Under the pieces are notes generated by a model. It saw only the letters and a list, made by a program, of their open reading frames with translations, was not told the DNA's origin and searched no databases. The translations under genes were made by a program, and so were the position numbers. This document shows positions 50,358 to 57,177 of a stretch of 64,000 nucleotides of DNA, piece by piece. Each line of letters opens with the position of its first letter. The stretch's first letter is position 1. Source of the stretch: Nitrosopumilaceae archaeon (GTDB taxonomy: Archaea; Thermoproteota; Nitrososphaeria; Nitrososphaerales; Nitrosopumilaceae); the NCBI GenBank assembly GCA_965209085.1, contig OZ242376.1, positions 1,248,001 through 1,312,000 on the forward strand. The letters run 5' to 3'.

Positions 50358-50666
50358 ATGACCATATCCATACAGGCCAGCACGACTACGTACGAGGAAG
50401 ATTCCATACATGTGAAAAAAGCGATTGCAAACATGTCATCATTGTGCGGAGATCCGTCAGGATATGAGATAGGCAAACCGTCCACCAAATTTGGATGGAC
50501 GTTTTACACGATACATTTGGAGAATGAATTGTTTTTGGGAATAAAGTCAAAGTTTGGCGACATGATAAAAAAAGGCCGCAACGATGACGAGGGATTTATT
50601 TATTTTATGACAGAGTATCTTGAAGCGCGAAATATCAAAGTTAAACTAAAACTATTGTCAAACTAG
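50358..50666 (+). CDS. hypothetical protein
   Basis: 102-aa ORF abutting the previous gene. Confidence 0.65.
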
Positions 50667-51250
50667 ACTCTTCTGCCACGTTTGCCGCCTTTTTTACGCG
50701 TTGTATCATGGGGTATTGGCGTAACATCGTCTATGCGTCCGATTTTAAATCCGCCTCTTGCCAAAGCACGTATTGCAGCCTGCGCTCCAGGTCCTGGAAC
50801 TCTAGAACCTACTCCGCCCACGGCCCGGACTCGGATGTGAAATGCCGTAAATCCCTTTGTACGCGAAGATTCTATTACAGCGTTTGCAGCTTTCATTGCA
50901 GCAAACGGCGATGACTCGTATCTGTCTGCTGTCACATGCATTCCACCGGAGCTAATCGATACTGTTTCAGCACCGGTAAGGTCAGTCATGTGGATAATTG
51001 TATTATTGTAACTGCTAAAGATGTGGGCAATTCCCCATTTTTCCTTTGTTTTTGTCGGGTCACTTTCATCGGATTCAGGTTCTGTCTCATTTAGAATGGA
51101 TTCGGCAGTTTCACCCTCCTCCATGATTGATTCAACCTCTTGAGGCTTGGCCACTTTTGGATCTTTCAAGACTTGGGGTTTGGCTATTTTTGGATCTTCC
51201 AAGACCTGTGGCGTTACATTTTCAGTTGAATTCGAAGTTGTCTCTGACAC
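50663..51250 (-). CDS. rps11: 30S ribosomal protein uS11 with acidic N-terminal extension
   Basis: [36 protein letters not shown]. Confidence 0.96.
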
Positions 51251-51660: not shown

Positions 51661-51841
51661 TGTCACCTAATTTTATTATTTCAATTCATAAAAAAATCCA
51701 AAAACGTTTTTCGATTACTGCAGGTATAATGAGTCATGGGAATTTACAAAATGTTGCAGATATGCCAGACAGATATGTTAATGGTGTGGAACAATTTGAT
51801 ACAGTATTCAAAAAAGCTGCATCCTTGACCGAATCTATTAT
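51660..51841 (+). pseudogene. Fic/Doc family toxin, truncated by IS3 insertion before the catalytic HPF motif
   Basis: IISIHKKI...GI...GNL....P......F..VFKKAASL..SII, then the IS3 terminus. Confidence 0.75.
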
Positions 51842-51915
51842 TGGTGCGGACCCCTGTACAATGAGGTGGTATGTACGAAAAAATCAAAAAGCCCTCAAAC
51901 CACGAAAAAGACAAT

Positions 51916-51993
51916 AGACCTCATACATAATCATTAAAATCAGTCATTTTTATTCGTAAAAATTGTGAATTTGGTCCATTATGCATGAAGTCT
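51916..51993 (+). mobile_element. 78-bp MITE family A, copy 1
   Basis: TIRs AGACCTCATACATAAT / ATTATGCATGAAGTCT; 3-bp TSD AAT. Confidence 0.88.
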
Positions 51994-51994
51994 A

Positions 51995-52987
51995 ATGATG
52001 TACACGGCAATGGATTTGAGTCAAAAATCAATACAGATCGCCGCTAGAAACAGCCAGGGAAAATTTGTTAAAGAATGTAAAATTGATAAAAATGCAAACT
52101 TGTTGTTAGATGTTCTAAAAGGATTGGGCAAGAAAAACACCATAAAGATTGTCATGGAGTCCAGATATAATCACCAGTATCCATACAAACTGTTGCGTGA
52201 ACTTGGATACGATGCTATCATAGCACAACCGTTTATGGTAAAGGCCATTGCATATGCTAAAGTTAAAACCGATAAAGTAGACGCAAGAATGCTAGCAAAC
52301 CTGCTTGCAGCAGAATTGATTCCAGAGGCATATATTCCTGAAACAGAAATTCAGGATTTACGTGATCTGGTTAGAAGTAGACTTGGACTTGTACGTGAAC
52401 GTGTTCATAAAAACAAGATAAAAGCAGATTTAGCAAAAAGATGGATAACAATTAACGTGTCAACCCAAATGATTCTTGGGCAAAAATGCTTACGAGAATT
52501 AAACATATGGTCAATAAACGATTAACTAAACGTTATTTCGTTCCTAAATGACAGGATTTACCAATTGGATCTTCGAATACGTAAAAAAGCAGAAAATAAC
52601 AAATATGCCAAGATTCTCATGACCATACTGGGAATATCATACTATTCGGCACTTTCTATATCCGCAGAGATTGCAGACATTGACAGATTTGAAAACCATG
52701 AACACTTGTGTTCATATGCACGATTGGTTCCAAGAGTGTATCAATCTAGGGAAAAGCTAAAGATGTGTGCTGCAGGAAAACGTGGAAGTCAAATACTCAG
52801 CTGGATGACTGTACAATGCATGTTTGTTCACATAAAAAATTGTCCAAATTCGGCAATTACCATACACTACAACAAGATAGCGGAAAGACGCAACAAGTCA
52901 AAGGTAAAGATCGCAGCGGCTAGAAAGATGATGAAAATCATCCATGTAATGCTAAAAGAAAACACATCTTTTAGACACGATGGATAA
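51995..52987 (+). pseudogene. IS110 DEDD recombinase with one in-frame stop (52523-52525)
   Basis: AMDL, VMES, KTDKVDA, SYARL.P..YQS, AAARK; both ORF pieces are in the same frame. Confidence 0.9.
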
Positions 52988-52989
52988 GT

Positions 52990-53198
52990 GGACGGCATAG
53001 AGGCTCATAACGTTCTTGCACTATGAGTGCGTGAATGAGGTTGGGTCCATAATGCCGCATAAGCGAAAACCACGGTGCGTTTGGAACGCGAATAGTAGTA
53101 TGCGATCCATCTGATTCAAAACCACACAATGTGGAGGACGACATCTAGCGAAAGATATGCACCGTTTTAAATAAAACATGTCAAGTTTAATAACAAAG
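52990..53198 (+). ncRNA. candidate bridge/seek RNA of the IS1111-group element
   Basis: Non-coding right end with several stems (CGGCAT/ATGCCG, CTCATA/TATGAG, CGGTGC/GCACCG, CCACA/TGTGG). Confidence 0.55.
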
Positions 53199-54486
53199 GA
53201 TTATGTCGTACATTGTAGAACGATTTTTGCATTAAAAATGATAGGATCGGAGGGTTCATTTTATCATTGCCCTCCATGCGGTGCCAAATTCTGATGGCGT
53301 CGCGTACCCTATTGCAGAGTGTACTTGGTTCTGATTGTAATCCTCAAAGGCGTATGATATTGCAGCCTCTGCGTCCTGGAACGTCTCAAAGTCGCGCGGC
53401 CAGACATACTCTTTCTTGAGACTCTTGTGGAAAGATTCCACATGAGCATTTTGCTCTGGTGTATGATAGTGGATGAATTCTTACCTCACACCGTATGCTT
53501 TTACAGTCTTGCCAAATTGCGCTGAAATATACTGGGAGCCGTTGTCGGTTCTTAAAACAAGCTTTGAGCAGTCCGGTTTTTTGGATGCCAAAGCTTCAGT
53601 TAATGCTGCAATTGCACCGTCGGTAATAGCTCTTGACTCAAACGCATATCCGACCCATTCGCGGGTAAATGCATCAAGGATGTTAAACAGATAACATCAT
53701 CTGTCCTGACCGCACCAAATGTACGTCATGTTAGCTTGCCAGAGCTGATCAGGTCCTGCAAGTTTTGGTTGTTTTCTGGAGCGTATGATCTCTTTTTTGG
53801 GTTTTGCAGGCACATTCTAGCCCAAATAATGATATATTTTCTTCACTTTTTTGCAGTTTACAGGTTTACCTGTAATGCGAGATATGATGGCGACCATTCT
53901 TCGTGTTCCATATGTGAGTCTGTTTTGAGCAACCTACGGTACCATCTTTGATATTTCCTTGTCGATTTGGATGTGCGTGGTTTTTTGATGGCATACAGTC
54001 TCTTGTTGGACGCTCCAGCATAGCGTGCGGATTTGCGAAGACTCAAACCTTGCTCCTGCATGAGTGTAACAGATTTCATTTTATATTCCACAGTAACGTT
54101 TTTTTTTAAAATATCATTGACGATGGTCAGATCACCAATGAGCTTTTTGAGGGATTCATTTTCACTTGTAAGCGTCTTGACTGCATTGTCTCTGGGCTTG
54201 CCTGAAAGAGCAGCTTTGCAGGATTCAATGAATGATTCACTCCAACGACTGAACGTTATCTGACTGATGTTGTGTCTACGGCACAGCTCTGCGGGGGTAA
54301 TGCGTGTGTTTATTGACTCCATGATGATACGTACTTTTTCATCTGGCGCACGATGGGGGTTTTTCATTGACAAATCCACTCCCGAGGGGGTAAAATTTGT
54401 AATACTTGAAGTGCTCTCCTTTTATGGGGTCCACTCCAAGATCAAGTCACATAAACTATATATCGTGTTTACCAATTAACTATCAT

Positions 54487-54687
54487 ATGAGTTCAGATAC
54501 TTATAATGTACCTGGAACCTGCCATAACTGCAGTGGCAAAAATTATGTTGTGTTGAAAAAAGGCATACCTGCAAATAGTAAAGATTCCGTAATAGCATCA
54601 GAGGAAATGGAATGTACTACTTGCGGGTGTATAGGTTTTATTTTGGCCAGCGCAATTTCGAATCGTGATAACGCGATGGATCTATGA
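54487..54687 (+). CDS. small zinc-ribbon protein
   Basis: CHNC...CTTC; ATG 54487. Confidence 0.6.
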   Translation: MSSDTYNVPGTCHNCSGKNYVVLKKGIPANSKDSVIASEEMECTTCGCIGFILASAISNRDNAMDL

Positions 54688-54843: not shown

Positions 54844-55329
54844 ATGGGAGTTAGTTCGCTACTTATTGCAGATTATCTATTATCTAAAGAAACACCATTA
54901 ACCCCAATGCAGGTAAACAAACTAGTTTACATATCCCATGGCTATTCATTAGCTGTACTTGATAAAAGCTTGATTGACGATAGAATTGAAGCTTGGAAAT
55001 ATGGTCCAGTCATACCAATTGTATATTATAAATTCAAACAATATGGTGGAGATATAATAGACCGGCTAGGTTATTGCAAAACATCCTTATCGGATAATGT
55101 ATTACTTACAGAACGTAAAAAATTCTTTACGATCGCAATTGATCTTACGAAAAAAAATATTGTAGATTTCGTATTTTCTAAATATAGCAATTATCGAGGA
55201 ACACAATTATCTGTAATCACTCATGAGAAAAATACACCGTGGGCAGAATGCTATAATGAGAATGAACTGTTTACAGAAATTCCAAATGACATCATAAAAA
55301 AACACTACAAGGAGTTAATACATGACTAA
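54844..55329 (+). CDS. Panacea (DUF4065/SocA-like) antitoxin
   Basis: LTPMQVNKLVY, IEAWKYGPV, L...TH...PW; upstream TATA 54816-54822. Confidence 0.9.
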   Translation: MGVSSLLIADYLLSKETPLTPMQVNKLVYISHGYSLAVLDKSLIDDRIEAWKYGPVIPIVYYKFKQYGGDIIDRLGYCKTSLSDNVLLTERKKFFTIAIDLTKKNIVDFVFSKYSNYRGTQLSVITHEKNTPWAECYNENELFTEIPNDIIKKHYKELIHD

Positions 55330-55747
55330 GAAAAAGTCCGAAAATGATGAATTATTAGAAAAGATGTATTTGGAACATAAGAAAATATTATTTAGAAAAC
55401 ATAGCACTACCCATGGCGAAAAAATCAAAAAGCTTCTTATAGTTAAAAAACCTAAAAAAAATGACGAGGATGATTTTTTTAAAAATAAAGATATGCGTGA
55501 AACTTTAAACAAACATTTTTTAAAAAATCTTCCGAAATTTTGGCATGAAGAAAATATAAAATATATGCTAAAAACATTACGTTATATTACTACATATGCA
55601 TATATTGGCACGTTTATTATTTTGATCTTTACAGGATTTAAATTCTATGGTTTTAATATGCCTGAAAATGTATTAATAGTATTAATAGCATCCATTGCAA
55701 CTTCAAAAATAACTCAATCGATAACATCAGCTATAAAATCAAAATAA
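55322..55747 (+). CDS. putative PanT-type toxin with two C-terminal TM helices
   Basis: Overlaps the Panacea gene end; basic N-terminus and two hydrophobic helices. Confidence 0.55.
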   Translation: MTKKKSENDELLEKMYLEHKKILFRKHSTTHGEKIKKLLIVKKPKKNDEDDFFKNKDMRETLNKHFLKNLPKFWHEENIKYMLKTLRYITTYAYIGTFIILIFTGFKFYGFNMPENVLIVLIASIATSKITQSITSAIKSK

Positions 55748-56633: not shown

Positions 56634-57177
56634 TGTGCATATAATGATGTGCTATGTATTCAGAACGCACGTCAAATATCTGTGGAGGGATGCAATATCC
56701 ACAAACCCAAAATTTCCGGTCTGTTGGGACAACTTCATCAACATCGATGTTTTTTGGTATCTCAGTACCACTAAGATCTTCTTCAAGGAAAACTTCCCTA
56801 GGATCGCATGATGTATCTGCAATGTGTGTTTTCCTCTCATCTCCAGCAAAATCAATCAATGATCCTGATTTTGAAACATATCTGCATGCATCACATACTA
56901 GACTTCATGCATAATGGGATAAATTCCCAATTTTTACGAATAAAAATGACCGATTTGAACGATTATGCATACGGTCTACTACAATGTATCTGCCATAGCT
57001 AATATTCAGATCCAAGCGCCTCAACCAGGTTTTTCTTAGAAATTTCACGGGCTCTATTTTACTACATTCATGATTTTCCAACTGAATGTGATCTACACAA
57101 AAATCTCGCCTACAAAATTTACATGCAAAATCGTCCGGAAATGCCACACCAATTCCACAAAATCCACATTTTTTCAT
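56629..57177 (-). pseudogene. AN1-type/multi-zinc-finger protein disrupted by MITE A
   Basis: CGFC..F.CKFC...FC..H....H.C; removing the MITE plus one TSD restores ...YIVVCDACRYVSKSGSLIDFAG... in frame, ending in a C2H2-like motif. Confidence 0.85.
56900..56977 (-). mobile_element. 78-bp MITE family A, copy 2
   Basis: Same length and TIRs as 51916-51993, inverted; 3-bp TSD ACT. Confidence 0.9.

Follow-up and report, generated by a model that had tools for sequence, protein, structure and literature searches.

A defective IS110-family element at a fixed site within an IS3-family terminal repeat of a Nitrosopumilaceae genome, with a candidate guide RNA in its right end

The window analysed here is a stretch of 64,000 nucleotides from a Nitrosopumilaceae archaeon (contig OZ242376.1), which corresponds to positions 1248001-1312000 of a genome that is a single contig of 1.69 Mb. 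Between window positions 51842 and 54438 three mobile elements are nested: an insertion sequence (IS) of the IS3 family, an IS110-family element of 1353 bp that lies in one of its terminal repeats, and a miniature inverted-repeat transposable element (MITE) of 78 bp that sits at the start codon of the transposase gene of the IS110-family element. Positions are those of the window unless the genome is named. An original prediction made from this DNA had proposed the same three layers, and all three hold; the border that it drew between the two insertion sequences does not.

The host IS3-family element lies on the minus strand and takes up the whole of 51842-54438. The insert has severed the outer 23 bp of its terminal repeat (TGGTGCGGACCCCTGTACAATGA, 51842..51864, minus strand) from the remainder (53218..54438, minus strand), in which we find OrfA at 54379..53858, an OrfB remnant at 53900..53256 and the far tip at 54426-54438. 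OrfA matches the Pfam family HTH_Tnp_1, and the OrfB remnants match rve_3 and rve_2; the OrfB remnant in the window contains three in-frame stops. The tips read TGGTGCGGACCCC and GGGGTCCACTCCA, running TGGTGCGG... at one end and ...CACTCCA at the other, with repeats that begin with TG and end with CA, and the length of the element without its insert is 1244 bp. Two consecutive frames (a helix-turn-helix OrfA and a DDE/rve OrfB), the size and the TG...CA repeats identify the host as a member of the IS3 family. A BLAST search of the genome with this element returned 36 matches, about 10 of them near full length at 81-89% identity, and in a better-kept copy elsewhere in the genome an OrfA of 100 amino acids overlaps an OrfB of 318 amino acids. 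A target duplication of the window IS3 is not evident, although no study was aimed at this duplication.

The borders of the insert were read from IS3 copies that it does not interrupt. For this we used the 24 IS3 matches whose start coincides with the IS3 base that directly follows the insert, and recorded the bases in front of each. With the window copy excluded, 14 of the 23 other IS3 ends read TGGTGCGGACCCC(T/G/C)GTACAATGA followed by GAACG, so that the 23-bp tip is joined directly to GAACG..., another 8 read TAGA(A/G)(G/A)GA followed by GAACG, and one is aberrant. None of the 23 lacks the six bases CAATGA (14 ends) or a GAAGGA-like variant of them (8 ends). Because uninterrupted IS3 ends carry these bases, the CAATGA at 51859-64 is IS3 sequence and the IS3 element runs to 51864. 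The insertion point is then 23 bp from the IS3 tip, and the IS110-family element extends over 51865..53217 on the forward strand. The intact site CAATG-AG-AACG is represented by CAATG-AG-GTGG at the left junction, with one copy of AG at 51864..51865 (forward strand), and by CATTGT-AG-AACG at the right junction, with the other copy at 53217..53218 (forward strand). This 2-bp AG is the only sequence common to both junctions. AG on both sides is the picture expected of an IS110-family core and not of a 4-bp duplication, and the element has neither classical terminal inverted repeats nor any duplication beyond the short common core, as is usual for the family.

The original prediction had drawn the element as 51859-53213, inserted 13 bp inside the IS3 end at a reconstructed target GGACCCC-TGTA-GAACG, with TGTA duplicated and with a circle junction that forms the palindrome CATTGTACAATG. 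TGTA is indeed found at both positions (51855-58 and 53214-17), and CATTGTA, the last 7 nt up to 53217 (53211-17), is the reverse complement of TACAATG in IS3 (51857-63). We nevertheless consider this anatomy practically out of the question. In 0 of the 23 other IS3 ends in the genome does CCCCTGTA stand directly before GAACG, as a CCCC-TGTA-GAACG site requires; six extra bases stand there, and the borders read from these ends duplicate AG only. The anatomy could be rescued if the six bases were the footprint of a former insertion in all 23 ends, but precise recombination of the IS110 type gives no such expectation. A mismatch between intact IS3 copies and the reconstructed site had been named beforehand as evidence against the prediction, and for these details the mismatch is plain. 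The borders had been placed 6 bp off, and both the TGTA duplication and the palindrome are artefacts of this error; the palindrome stems from the reverse complementarity, noted above, between CATTGTA at 53211-17 and the IS3 bases 51857-63. For annotation, this implies that the borders of IS110-family elements are not readable from local repeats and that uninterrupted copies of the target are required.

The transposase gene of the insert is a pseudogene of 330 codons in a single frame (51995..52987, forward strand), broken by one stop codon, TAA, at 52523-25 (codon 177), in agreement with the earlier claim of an IS110-family gene with a single stop nested in the IS3 element. PF01548 (E = 9.9e-18) and PF02371 (E = 4.8e-13) are matched in this one frame. 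The profile NF033542, "IS110 family RNA-guided transposase", gives 183.8 bits against a cut-off of 140 and is covered from position 3 to 342 of 343, and the IS621 transposase in the PDB, which belongs to the family with a DEDD plus serine recombinase fold, is matched with E = 9e-6. A DEDD/RuvC-like domain at the N-terminus and a PF02371 domain at the C-terminus are the arrangement of the IS110 family.

The decay of the gene becomes apparent in a codon-by-codon comparison with two sister copies. The motifs of the DEDD region (MDLS, VMES and KTDKVDAR) are kept. The TAA stands where both sisters have a Ser codon, LGIS (L at 52628-30) where both have PGIS, and QSRE (R at 52748-50) where both have QSGE, which turns SG into SR at a position where IS621 aligns ESG. 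The SG pair has been reported as required in IS110-family enzymes (PMC11187229), and the window copy does not have the intact catalytic set of DEDD plus a C-terminal SG. Transposases of the IS1111 group are described with 330-350 amino acids, a range that includes the 330 codons of the window gene, and with the motif GL-P----S(T)G, for which the window reads RLVPRVYQSR and a sister RLIPRVYQSG, the first G being R in all copies. Judged by these residues, we regard the window copy as a dead member of the IS110 family and not as a non-member.

A further defect comes from the MITE (51916..51993; terminal repeats AGACCTCAT.../...ATGAAGTCT), which landed at the recombinase ATG, as had been predicted. 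It is flanked by a duplication of AAT (51913-15 and 51994-96), and two MITE-free left ends of the element elsewhere in the genome (1228757-1228869 and 683849-683961) read GACAATG... directly. The right AAT of the duplication is the source of the A and the T of the transposase ATG, and the MITE has displaced everything upstream of this ATG. The sequence is short and non-coding, with terminal inverted repeats, a target duplication and many copies, all of which mark it as a MITE; the family gives 52 BLAST matches in the genome (about 50 copies), and the inspected copies are flanked by A-N-T triplets. The element is several steps from function because of the stop, the change of SG to SR, the change of PGIS to LGIS and the MITE at the ATG. 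The earlier opinion that it may be revivable, with a single stop plus a few substitutions, was therefore too optimistic. In one MITE copy, at genome 420878-420960, the inner 16 bp have given way to about 28 bp of IS3 tip, which correspond to TGGTGCGGACCCCTGTACAATGAGAACG in reverse complement, and this chimeric MITE carries an empty target site.

The non-coding ends of the IS110-family element are unequal, with 49 bp on the left, once the MITE and its duplication are removed, and about 230 bp on the right. The sub-terminal inverted repeats that had been predicted are present at 51871..51885 (ATGTACGAAAAAATC, forward strand), 5 bp inside the core, and at 53199..53213 (GATTATGTCGTACAT, forward strand), where TGT and then the core follow, the distance to the core being 3 bp. 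They are 15 nt long and complementary at 13 of the 15 positions (87%). The IS1111 group is described as having sub-terminal inverted repeats of 7-17 bp (PMC11208160) and a longer non-coding region downstream of tnp (PMC11187229). The element agrees with this group in its sub-terminal repeats, its longer non-coding end downstream and the order of its putative guides (see below), and by this anatomy it appears to belong to the IS1111 type within the IS110 family.

We folded the right end with RNAalifold, using four genomic copies and then seven copies including three from a metagenome-assembled genome (MAG) of Candidatus Nitrosotenuis, and both inputs gave the same first domain, a predicted seekRNA-like structure at 52988..53060 on the forward strand. 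Its helices pair 52988-90 with 53058-60, 52994-99 with 53050-56 and 53002-07 with 53042-47, and a hairpin pairs 53017-22 with 53026-31. Over the seven copies 96.1% of the cells in these helices are paired, against 26-48% when the partners are slid. Compensatory changes are seen in four pairs (nine cells changed on both sides), a value as high in 1 of 500 shuffles, and several G-U pairs of the domain are compatible with the forward strand only. A second predicted domain (53072..53165, forward strand) is closed by ACGGUGC:GCACCGU, contains the hairpin CCACA-CAA-UGUGG and is followed by TTTT (53165-68). All four genomic copies keep this domain, but the Nitrosotenuis relatives lack it, their right ends being 136-156 nt long against 231 nt in the window element. 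It is a candidate for a donor-binding loop or for a long form of the RNA. A scan of 51700-54600 against Rfam 15 (E up to 1) returned 0 matches.

The position of the MITE invites the thought that the element is of the IS110 group, with an upstream guide RNA that the MITE destroyed and a downstream fold that is irrelevant. The MITE does lie in the left end, directly at the ATG, but the MITE-free left ends have only 49 bp between core and ATG, which is too short for a bridge RNA, and the 230-bp right non-coding end is conserved in four copies and partly in three relatives, with covariation. We hold a lost upstream guide to be highly improbable.

The internal loop of the first domain carries matches to the target on both of its strands. 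The 5' strand (UAACGUUCU, 53008..53016, forward strand) is complementary to the top strand of the core and right flank: CGUUCU (53011-16) is complementary to AG-AACG in the window copy (AG-AACGTT in the five empty IS3 sites with T). The 3' strand (UGAAUGAGGU, 53032..53041, forward strand) contains AAUGAG (53034-39), which is identical to the top-strand AATG-AG of the left flank and core, and therefore complementary to the bottom strand. The two matches span the core, overlap in the target and occupy opposite strands of one internal loop. As read from the sequence, the top-strand match lies 5' of the bottom-strand match, which is the order of IS1111-type seekRNAs, whose two matches overlap at the insertion point; in IS110 types the order is reversed (PMC11187229). 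This arrangement has been shown experimentally for IS1111 types (Siddiquee et al. 2024, PMC11187229). When the right end was shuffled with its dinucleotides preserved, both kinds of core-spanning 6-mer fell within 40 nt of each other in 128 of 20,000 shuffles. Contiguous pairing of the 5' loop strand with the copy's own right flank, counted from the core, extends over 6, 5, 7, 7, 6, 7 and 8 nt in the seven copies, and the variable guide bases, which are ACG, AGG, AAG or UGG depending on the lineage, fit their own flanks with G-U/G-T wobbles. We also considered GGGTCC (53043-48), complementary to GGACCC of the IS3 tip, as a guide, and ruled it out as a strand of the covarying helix 53002-07:53042-47; the difference TGGAAC/TTAATC between copies is mostly helix.

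The genome contains one full copy of the IS110-family element, that in the window, and five fragments, all of which are truncated by other repeated elements. The left end at genome 1228869 adjoins, at the same base, a 23-bp IS3 tip identical to that in the window, and the left end at 683961 adjoins a variant IS3-type tip, TGATGTGGATCCCTGTAGG-AG, which agrees with a variant tip among the uninterrupted IS3 ends at 18 of 21 positions with a 3-nt gap (aligned by eye), so that both of the further left junctions (2 of 2) lie within IS3-type tips. The right-end fragments are found at genome 688393-689154 (92% identity), 1529877-1530920 (72%) and 496070-496273 (70%). The expectation that other copies would share the IS3 flank was thus borne out for the left ends, but not for these three older right ends, which are not in IS3; two of the three have altered guides that fit their own flanks. 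The site itself is concentrated in IS3 ends. The 10-mer AATGAGAACG occurs 18 times in the genome, against about 4 expected from composition, and 16 of the 18 are in IS3 tips (14 in TGGTGCGG-type tips and 2 in TGGAGTGG-type tips, with 2 elsewhere), and of the 33 occurrences of the 9-mer AATGAGAAC 28 fall in IS3 tips, with both kinds represented. Because AATGAGAAC sits in tips of both kinds, the site belongs to both terminal repeats of the IS3 family, and the element is therefore a parasite of the ends of another mobile element.

Some further observations concern the fragments. Both left fragments (1228757-1228869 and 683849-683961) stop at the same base, after AGAAACAGCC, the window equivalent being a break after 52055, and a different repeated element follows each of them. 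We considered the left end at 683961 and the right end at 688393 as halves of one element and dropped this idea, as their repeats do not match each other. Contigs of four sequencing runs contain joints that skip the insert or the MITE, and these provide no evidence on excision or circles because all of them are explicable by paralogous copies in the same genome.

We conclude, with a probability of about 80%, that the window holds a dead IS110-family insertion sequence that inserted site-specifically into the terminal repeat of an IS3-family element, its target most likely chosen by an RNA encoded in its right end. The observations that bear this reading are the borders, the AG overlap, the reuse of the site, a fold with covariation and the matches between guides and flanks. 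The element would have recombined into the IS3 terminal inverted repeat at ...TACAATG-AG-AACG(A/T)T..., 23 bp from the tip, and the dinucleotide AG, common to element and target, stands on both sides after insertion. The target would most likely be chosen by RNA from the 230-bp right non-coding end, by way of the first domain (52988-53060), in which the 5' loop strand would pair with AG and the right flank on the top strand, and the 3' loop strand with the left flank and AG on the bottom strand. Such an RNA would presumably be made, bind the transposase and direct recombination through a circular intermediate. The landing split the IS3 terminal repeat; later the MITE entered at the transposase ATG, the stop and the changes in conserved motifs accumulated in the transposase, and the host IS3 decayed as well. 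The original prediction of an RNA-guided parasite of IS ends in archaea is in line with the nesting and the reuse of the site, and an RNA guide is plausible from the loop matches.

Several observations weigh against this reading. In the window copy each of the two guide matches covers only 6 nt, the baseline of the guide-by-flank comparison is already 5 because GUUCU/AGAAC is constant, and some non-cognate pairs of guide and flank equal or exceed the cognate scores. The copy at 688393-689154 matches its own flank by only 5 nt, and for the left flank the comparison covers two copies, the window copy with 6 nt and the relative L142 with AC-AG plus one wobble. The candidates for a donor-binding loop, namely ACGACAU (53138-44, complementary to ATGTCGT of the right end), the hairpin-loop ACAAUGU and ACCAC (complementary to GTGGT of the left end), are not in register between copies, and none was assigned. 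The three older, diverged right ends are flanked by unique sequence. A covariance model of the RNA (R1) found it in 0 of 150 other family genomes (a sample without genome G196), and the comparison set therefore consists of seven copies from two genomes. We found no intact member of the lineage among the sampled copies, and the frame of the best relative has 281 amino acids; activity therefore cannot be assumed for any of these copies, and since all of them are defective, their practical value is limited. Finally, the window copy and the copy at 1228869 have identical IS3 tips, which makes movement as a composite IS3::IS110 possible for that pair.

If the shared tip of this pair is taken as the general case, a composite IS3::IS110 or an end fragment of it moved or was duplicated, and the match between loop and site is coincidental or the protein picks the target. 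The 6-nt length of the guide matches and the non-cognate pairs that do as well as the cognate ones suit this explanation, and so do short words common to the sub-terminal repeats and the IS3 repeat (TGTAC; AATCGTTC/GAACGATT), which could indicate recognition by protein. We find it unlikely all the same, as the junction at 683961 lies in a different, variant IS3-type tip, both strands of the loop reach across the core in the order published for IS1111, an arrangement that is rare in shuffles, and lineages with other guide bases occupy other flanks that fit. The split of the IS3 repeat at 23 bp should in addition hamper IS3 transposition of a composite.

There is also a resemblance between the target and the ends of the element. 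In the window, the CATTGTA of the right end, made up of 6 nt from the element end and the core A, is the left target flank in reverse complement, and the sub-terminal AATCGTTC of the three older copies (right ends at genome 689154, 1529877 and 496070) is the reverse complement of GAACGATT, in which the G of the core is joined to the right flank of the IS3 site. The words are short and the resemblance may be accidental, or it could reflect a rule by which donor and target look alike.

The closest relatives of the element are in the Candidatus Nitrosotenuis MAG, which belongs to the same family (Nitrososphaerota, Archaea). The lineage is rare. Some IS110-family match is present in 34 of 301 family genomes (one unpublished genome is counted among them), and only one other family genome has a match of more than 42% identity (52%). 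A degenerate 17-nt pattern of the RNA core, run over genome and metagenome contigs, matched at least 119 and at least 120 stretches, almost all of them by chance; a filter with nhmmer kept L142 (identical to L044), L110 and L155, plus a weak L201. The empty site corresponding to the reconstructed target of the relative gave 0 matches in G196.

Insertion sequences that land in the ends of other transposons are known in bacteria. IS4321 and IS5075 reportedly insert in the terminal repeats of Tn21-family transposons, and IS1383 is said to have the inverted repeats of IS1384 in Pseudomonas putida as its specific integration target. Like the window element, IS4321 and IS5075 are of the IS110 family, have sub-terminal repeats and take a fixed position inside the terminal repeat of another transposon, the target motif occurring in both repeats of the host; their transposase is about 24% identical to ours over 84% of the length, and the window element differs in having an archaeal host and an IS3-family insertion sequence, not a Tn3-family transposon, as prey. 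IS1383, likewise of the IS110 family, also takes the inverted repeats of a different insertion sequence as its target, but it is bacterial. The window element is an archaeal and defective new instance of a kind already known in bacteria.

With respect to the guide, the seekRNAs of ISEc11, ISPa11 and ISKpn4 resemble the window RNA in coming from the non-coding region downstream of tnp and in having two strand-complementary segments; they are about 80-100 nt long, and changed segments in relatives provide natural re-direction (PMC11187229). The window RNA differs in that it is known from sequence alone and in that the copies in this genome have an extra second domain of about 90 nt. IS621 has a 2-bp core common to donor and target and an internal loop that reads both target strands, as does the window element; its bridge RNA, with target and donor loops, lies upstream, whereas the window RNA lies downstream with the guide order reversed, the sub-terminal repeats of the window element are long, and none of its candidate donor loops was assigned. 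The closest named transposase is that of the ISHvo10 family (Haloferax volcanii), with 34.5% identity over 97%, and ISHvo10 is listed as a diverged relative of the IS1111 cluster (Siddiquee et al., PMC11187229). This element is archaeal like that of the window, and it is described with long non-coding regions on both sides, compared with 49 and 230 bp here. One source counts 662 IS110 recombinases in 2,835 archaeal genomes (10.1101/2024.06.21.599552), and the available part of one archaeal IS survey mentions IS110 once. Our literature search found no study of IS110-family elements and their targets in ammonia-oxidising archaea.

A second IS110-family element of about 1.35 kb is present in the genome, for example at 260078-261520, and it is better preserved, with frames of up to 375 amino acids, many near-identical copies and probably intact genes. 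Its transposase is 32% identical to the window transposase over residues 2-175, and it has about 135 bp of non-coding sequence upstream. Of its left junctions, 8 of 12 come after ...ATTATGCAT of a MITE family and 2 of 12 after the same word in another MITE-like repeat, while all 13 of its right junctions continue into a MITE-tip-like A-N-N-N-TCTA, which gives a core AT located 8 bp from the MITE tip. The MITE family targeted is the one that hit the first element, and its nearest copy in the window is at 56899-56978. Two words in the upstream region of the second element have complements in such sites: that of CCGUAU is AT-ACGG, and that of AUGGUU is AACCAT, which stands in the left end of the element itself.

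The window element offers a predicted natural guide-target pair for an IS1111-type RNA-guided recombinase in a mesophilic ammonia-oxidising archaeon, and it indicates that the terminal repeat of another transposon, a kind of target familiar from bacterial plasmids, is aimed at in archaea as well, in this one genome at least twice. A broader picture, which we put forward tentatively and at somewhat less than even odds, is that of a genome with layers of RNA-guided "hyperparasites" from the IS110 family, every one of them programmed to attack the end of some other mobile element. If it were true, bridge RNA or seekRNA recombinases would be natural disablers of competing transposons in archaea, and the echoes of the target in the element ends would hint at a look-alike rule for donor and target that has not yet been described.

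The genome is crowded with mutually nested insertion sequences, among them the IS3 family and two or more lineages of the IS110 family; the IS110 fragments are cut by at least three other repeated elements, in addition to which there are the numerous MITE copies. On the far side of the IS3 element, 54844-55329 encodes a protein with a SocA/Panacea domain (PF13274, E = 3e-21), which overlaps the next open reading frame by 8 bp; the latter (55322-55747) encodes a lysine-rich protein of 141 amino acids with a hydrophobic C-terminus, and the two together are possibly a Panacea-type toxin-antitoxin pair. On the other side, at 50663-51250 (minus strand), lies the gene for ribosomal protein S11, in which an acidic N-terminal extension of about 70 amino acids precedes the Pfam domain and contains the repeat PQVL(E/K)DPK(I/V)AKPQ.

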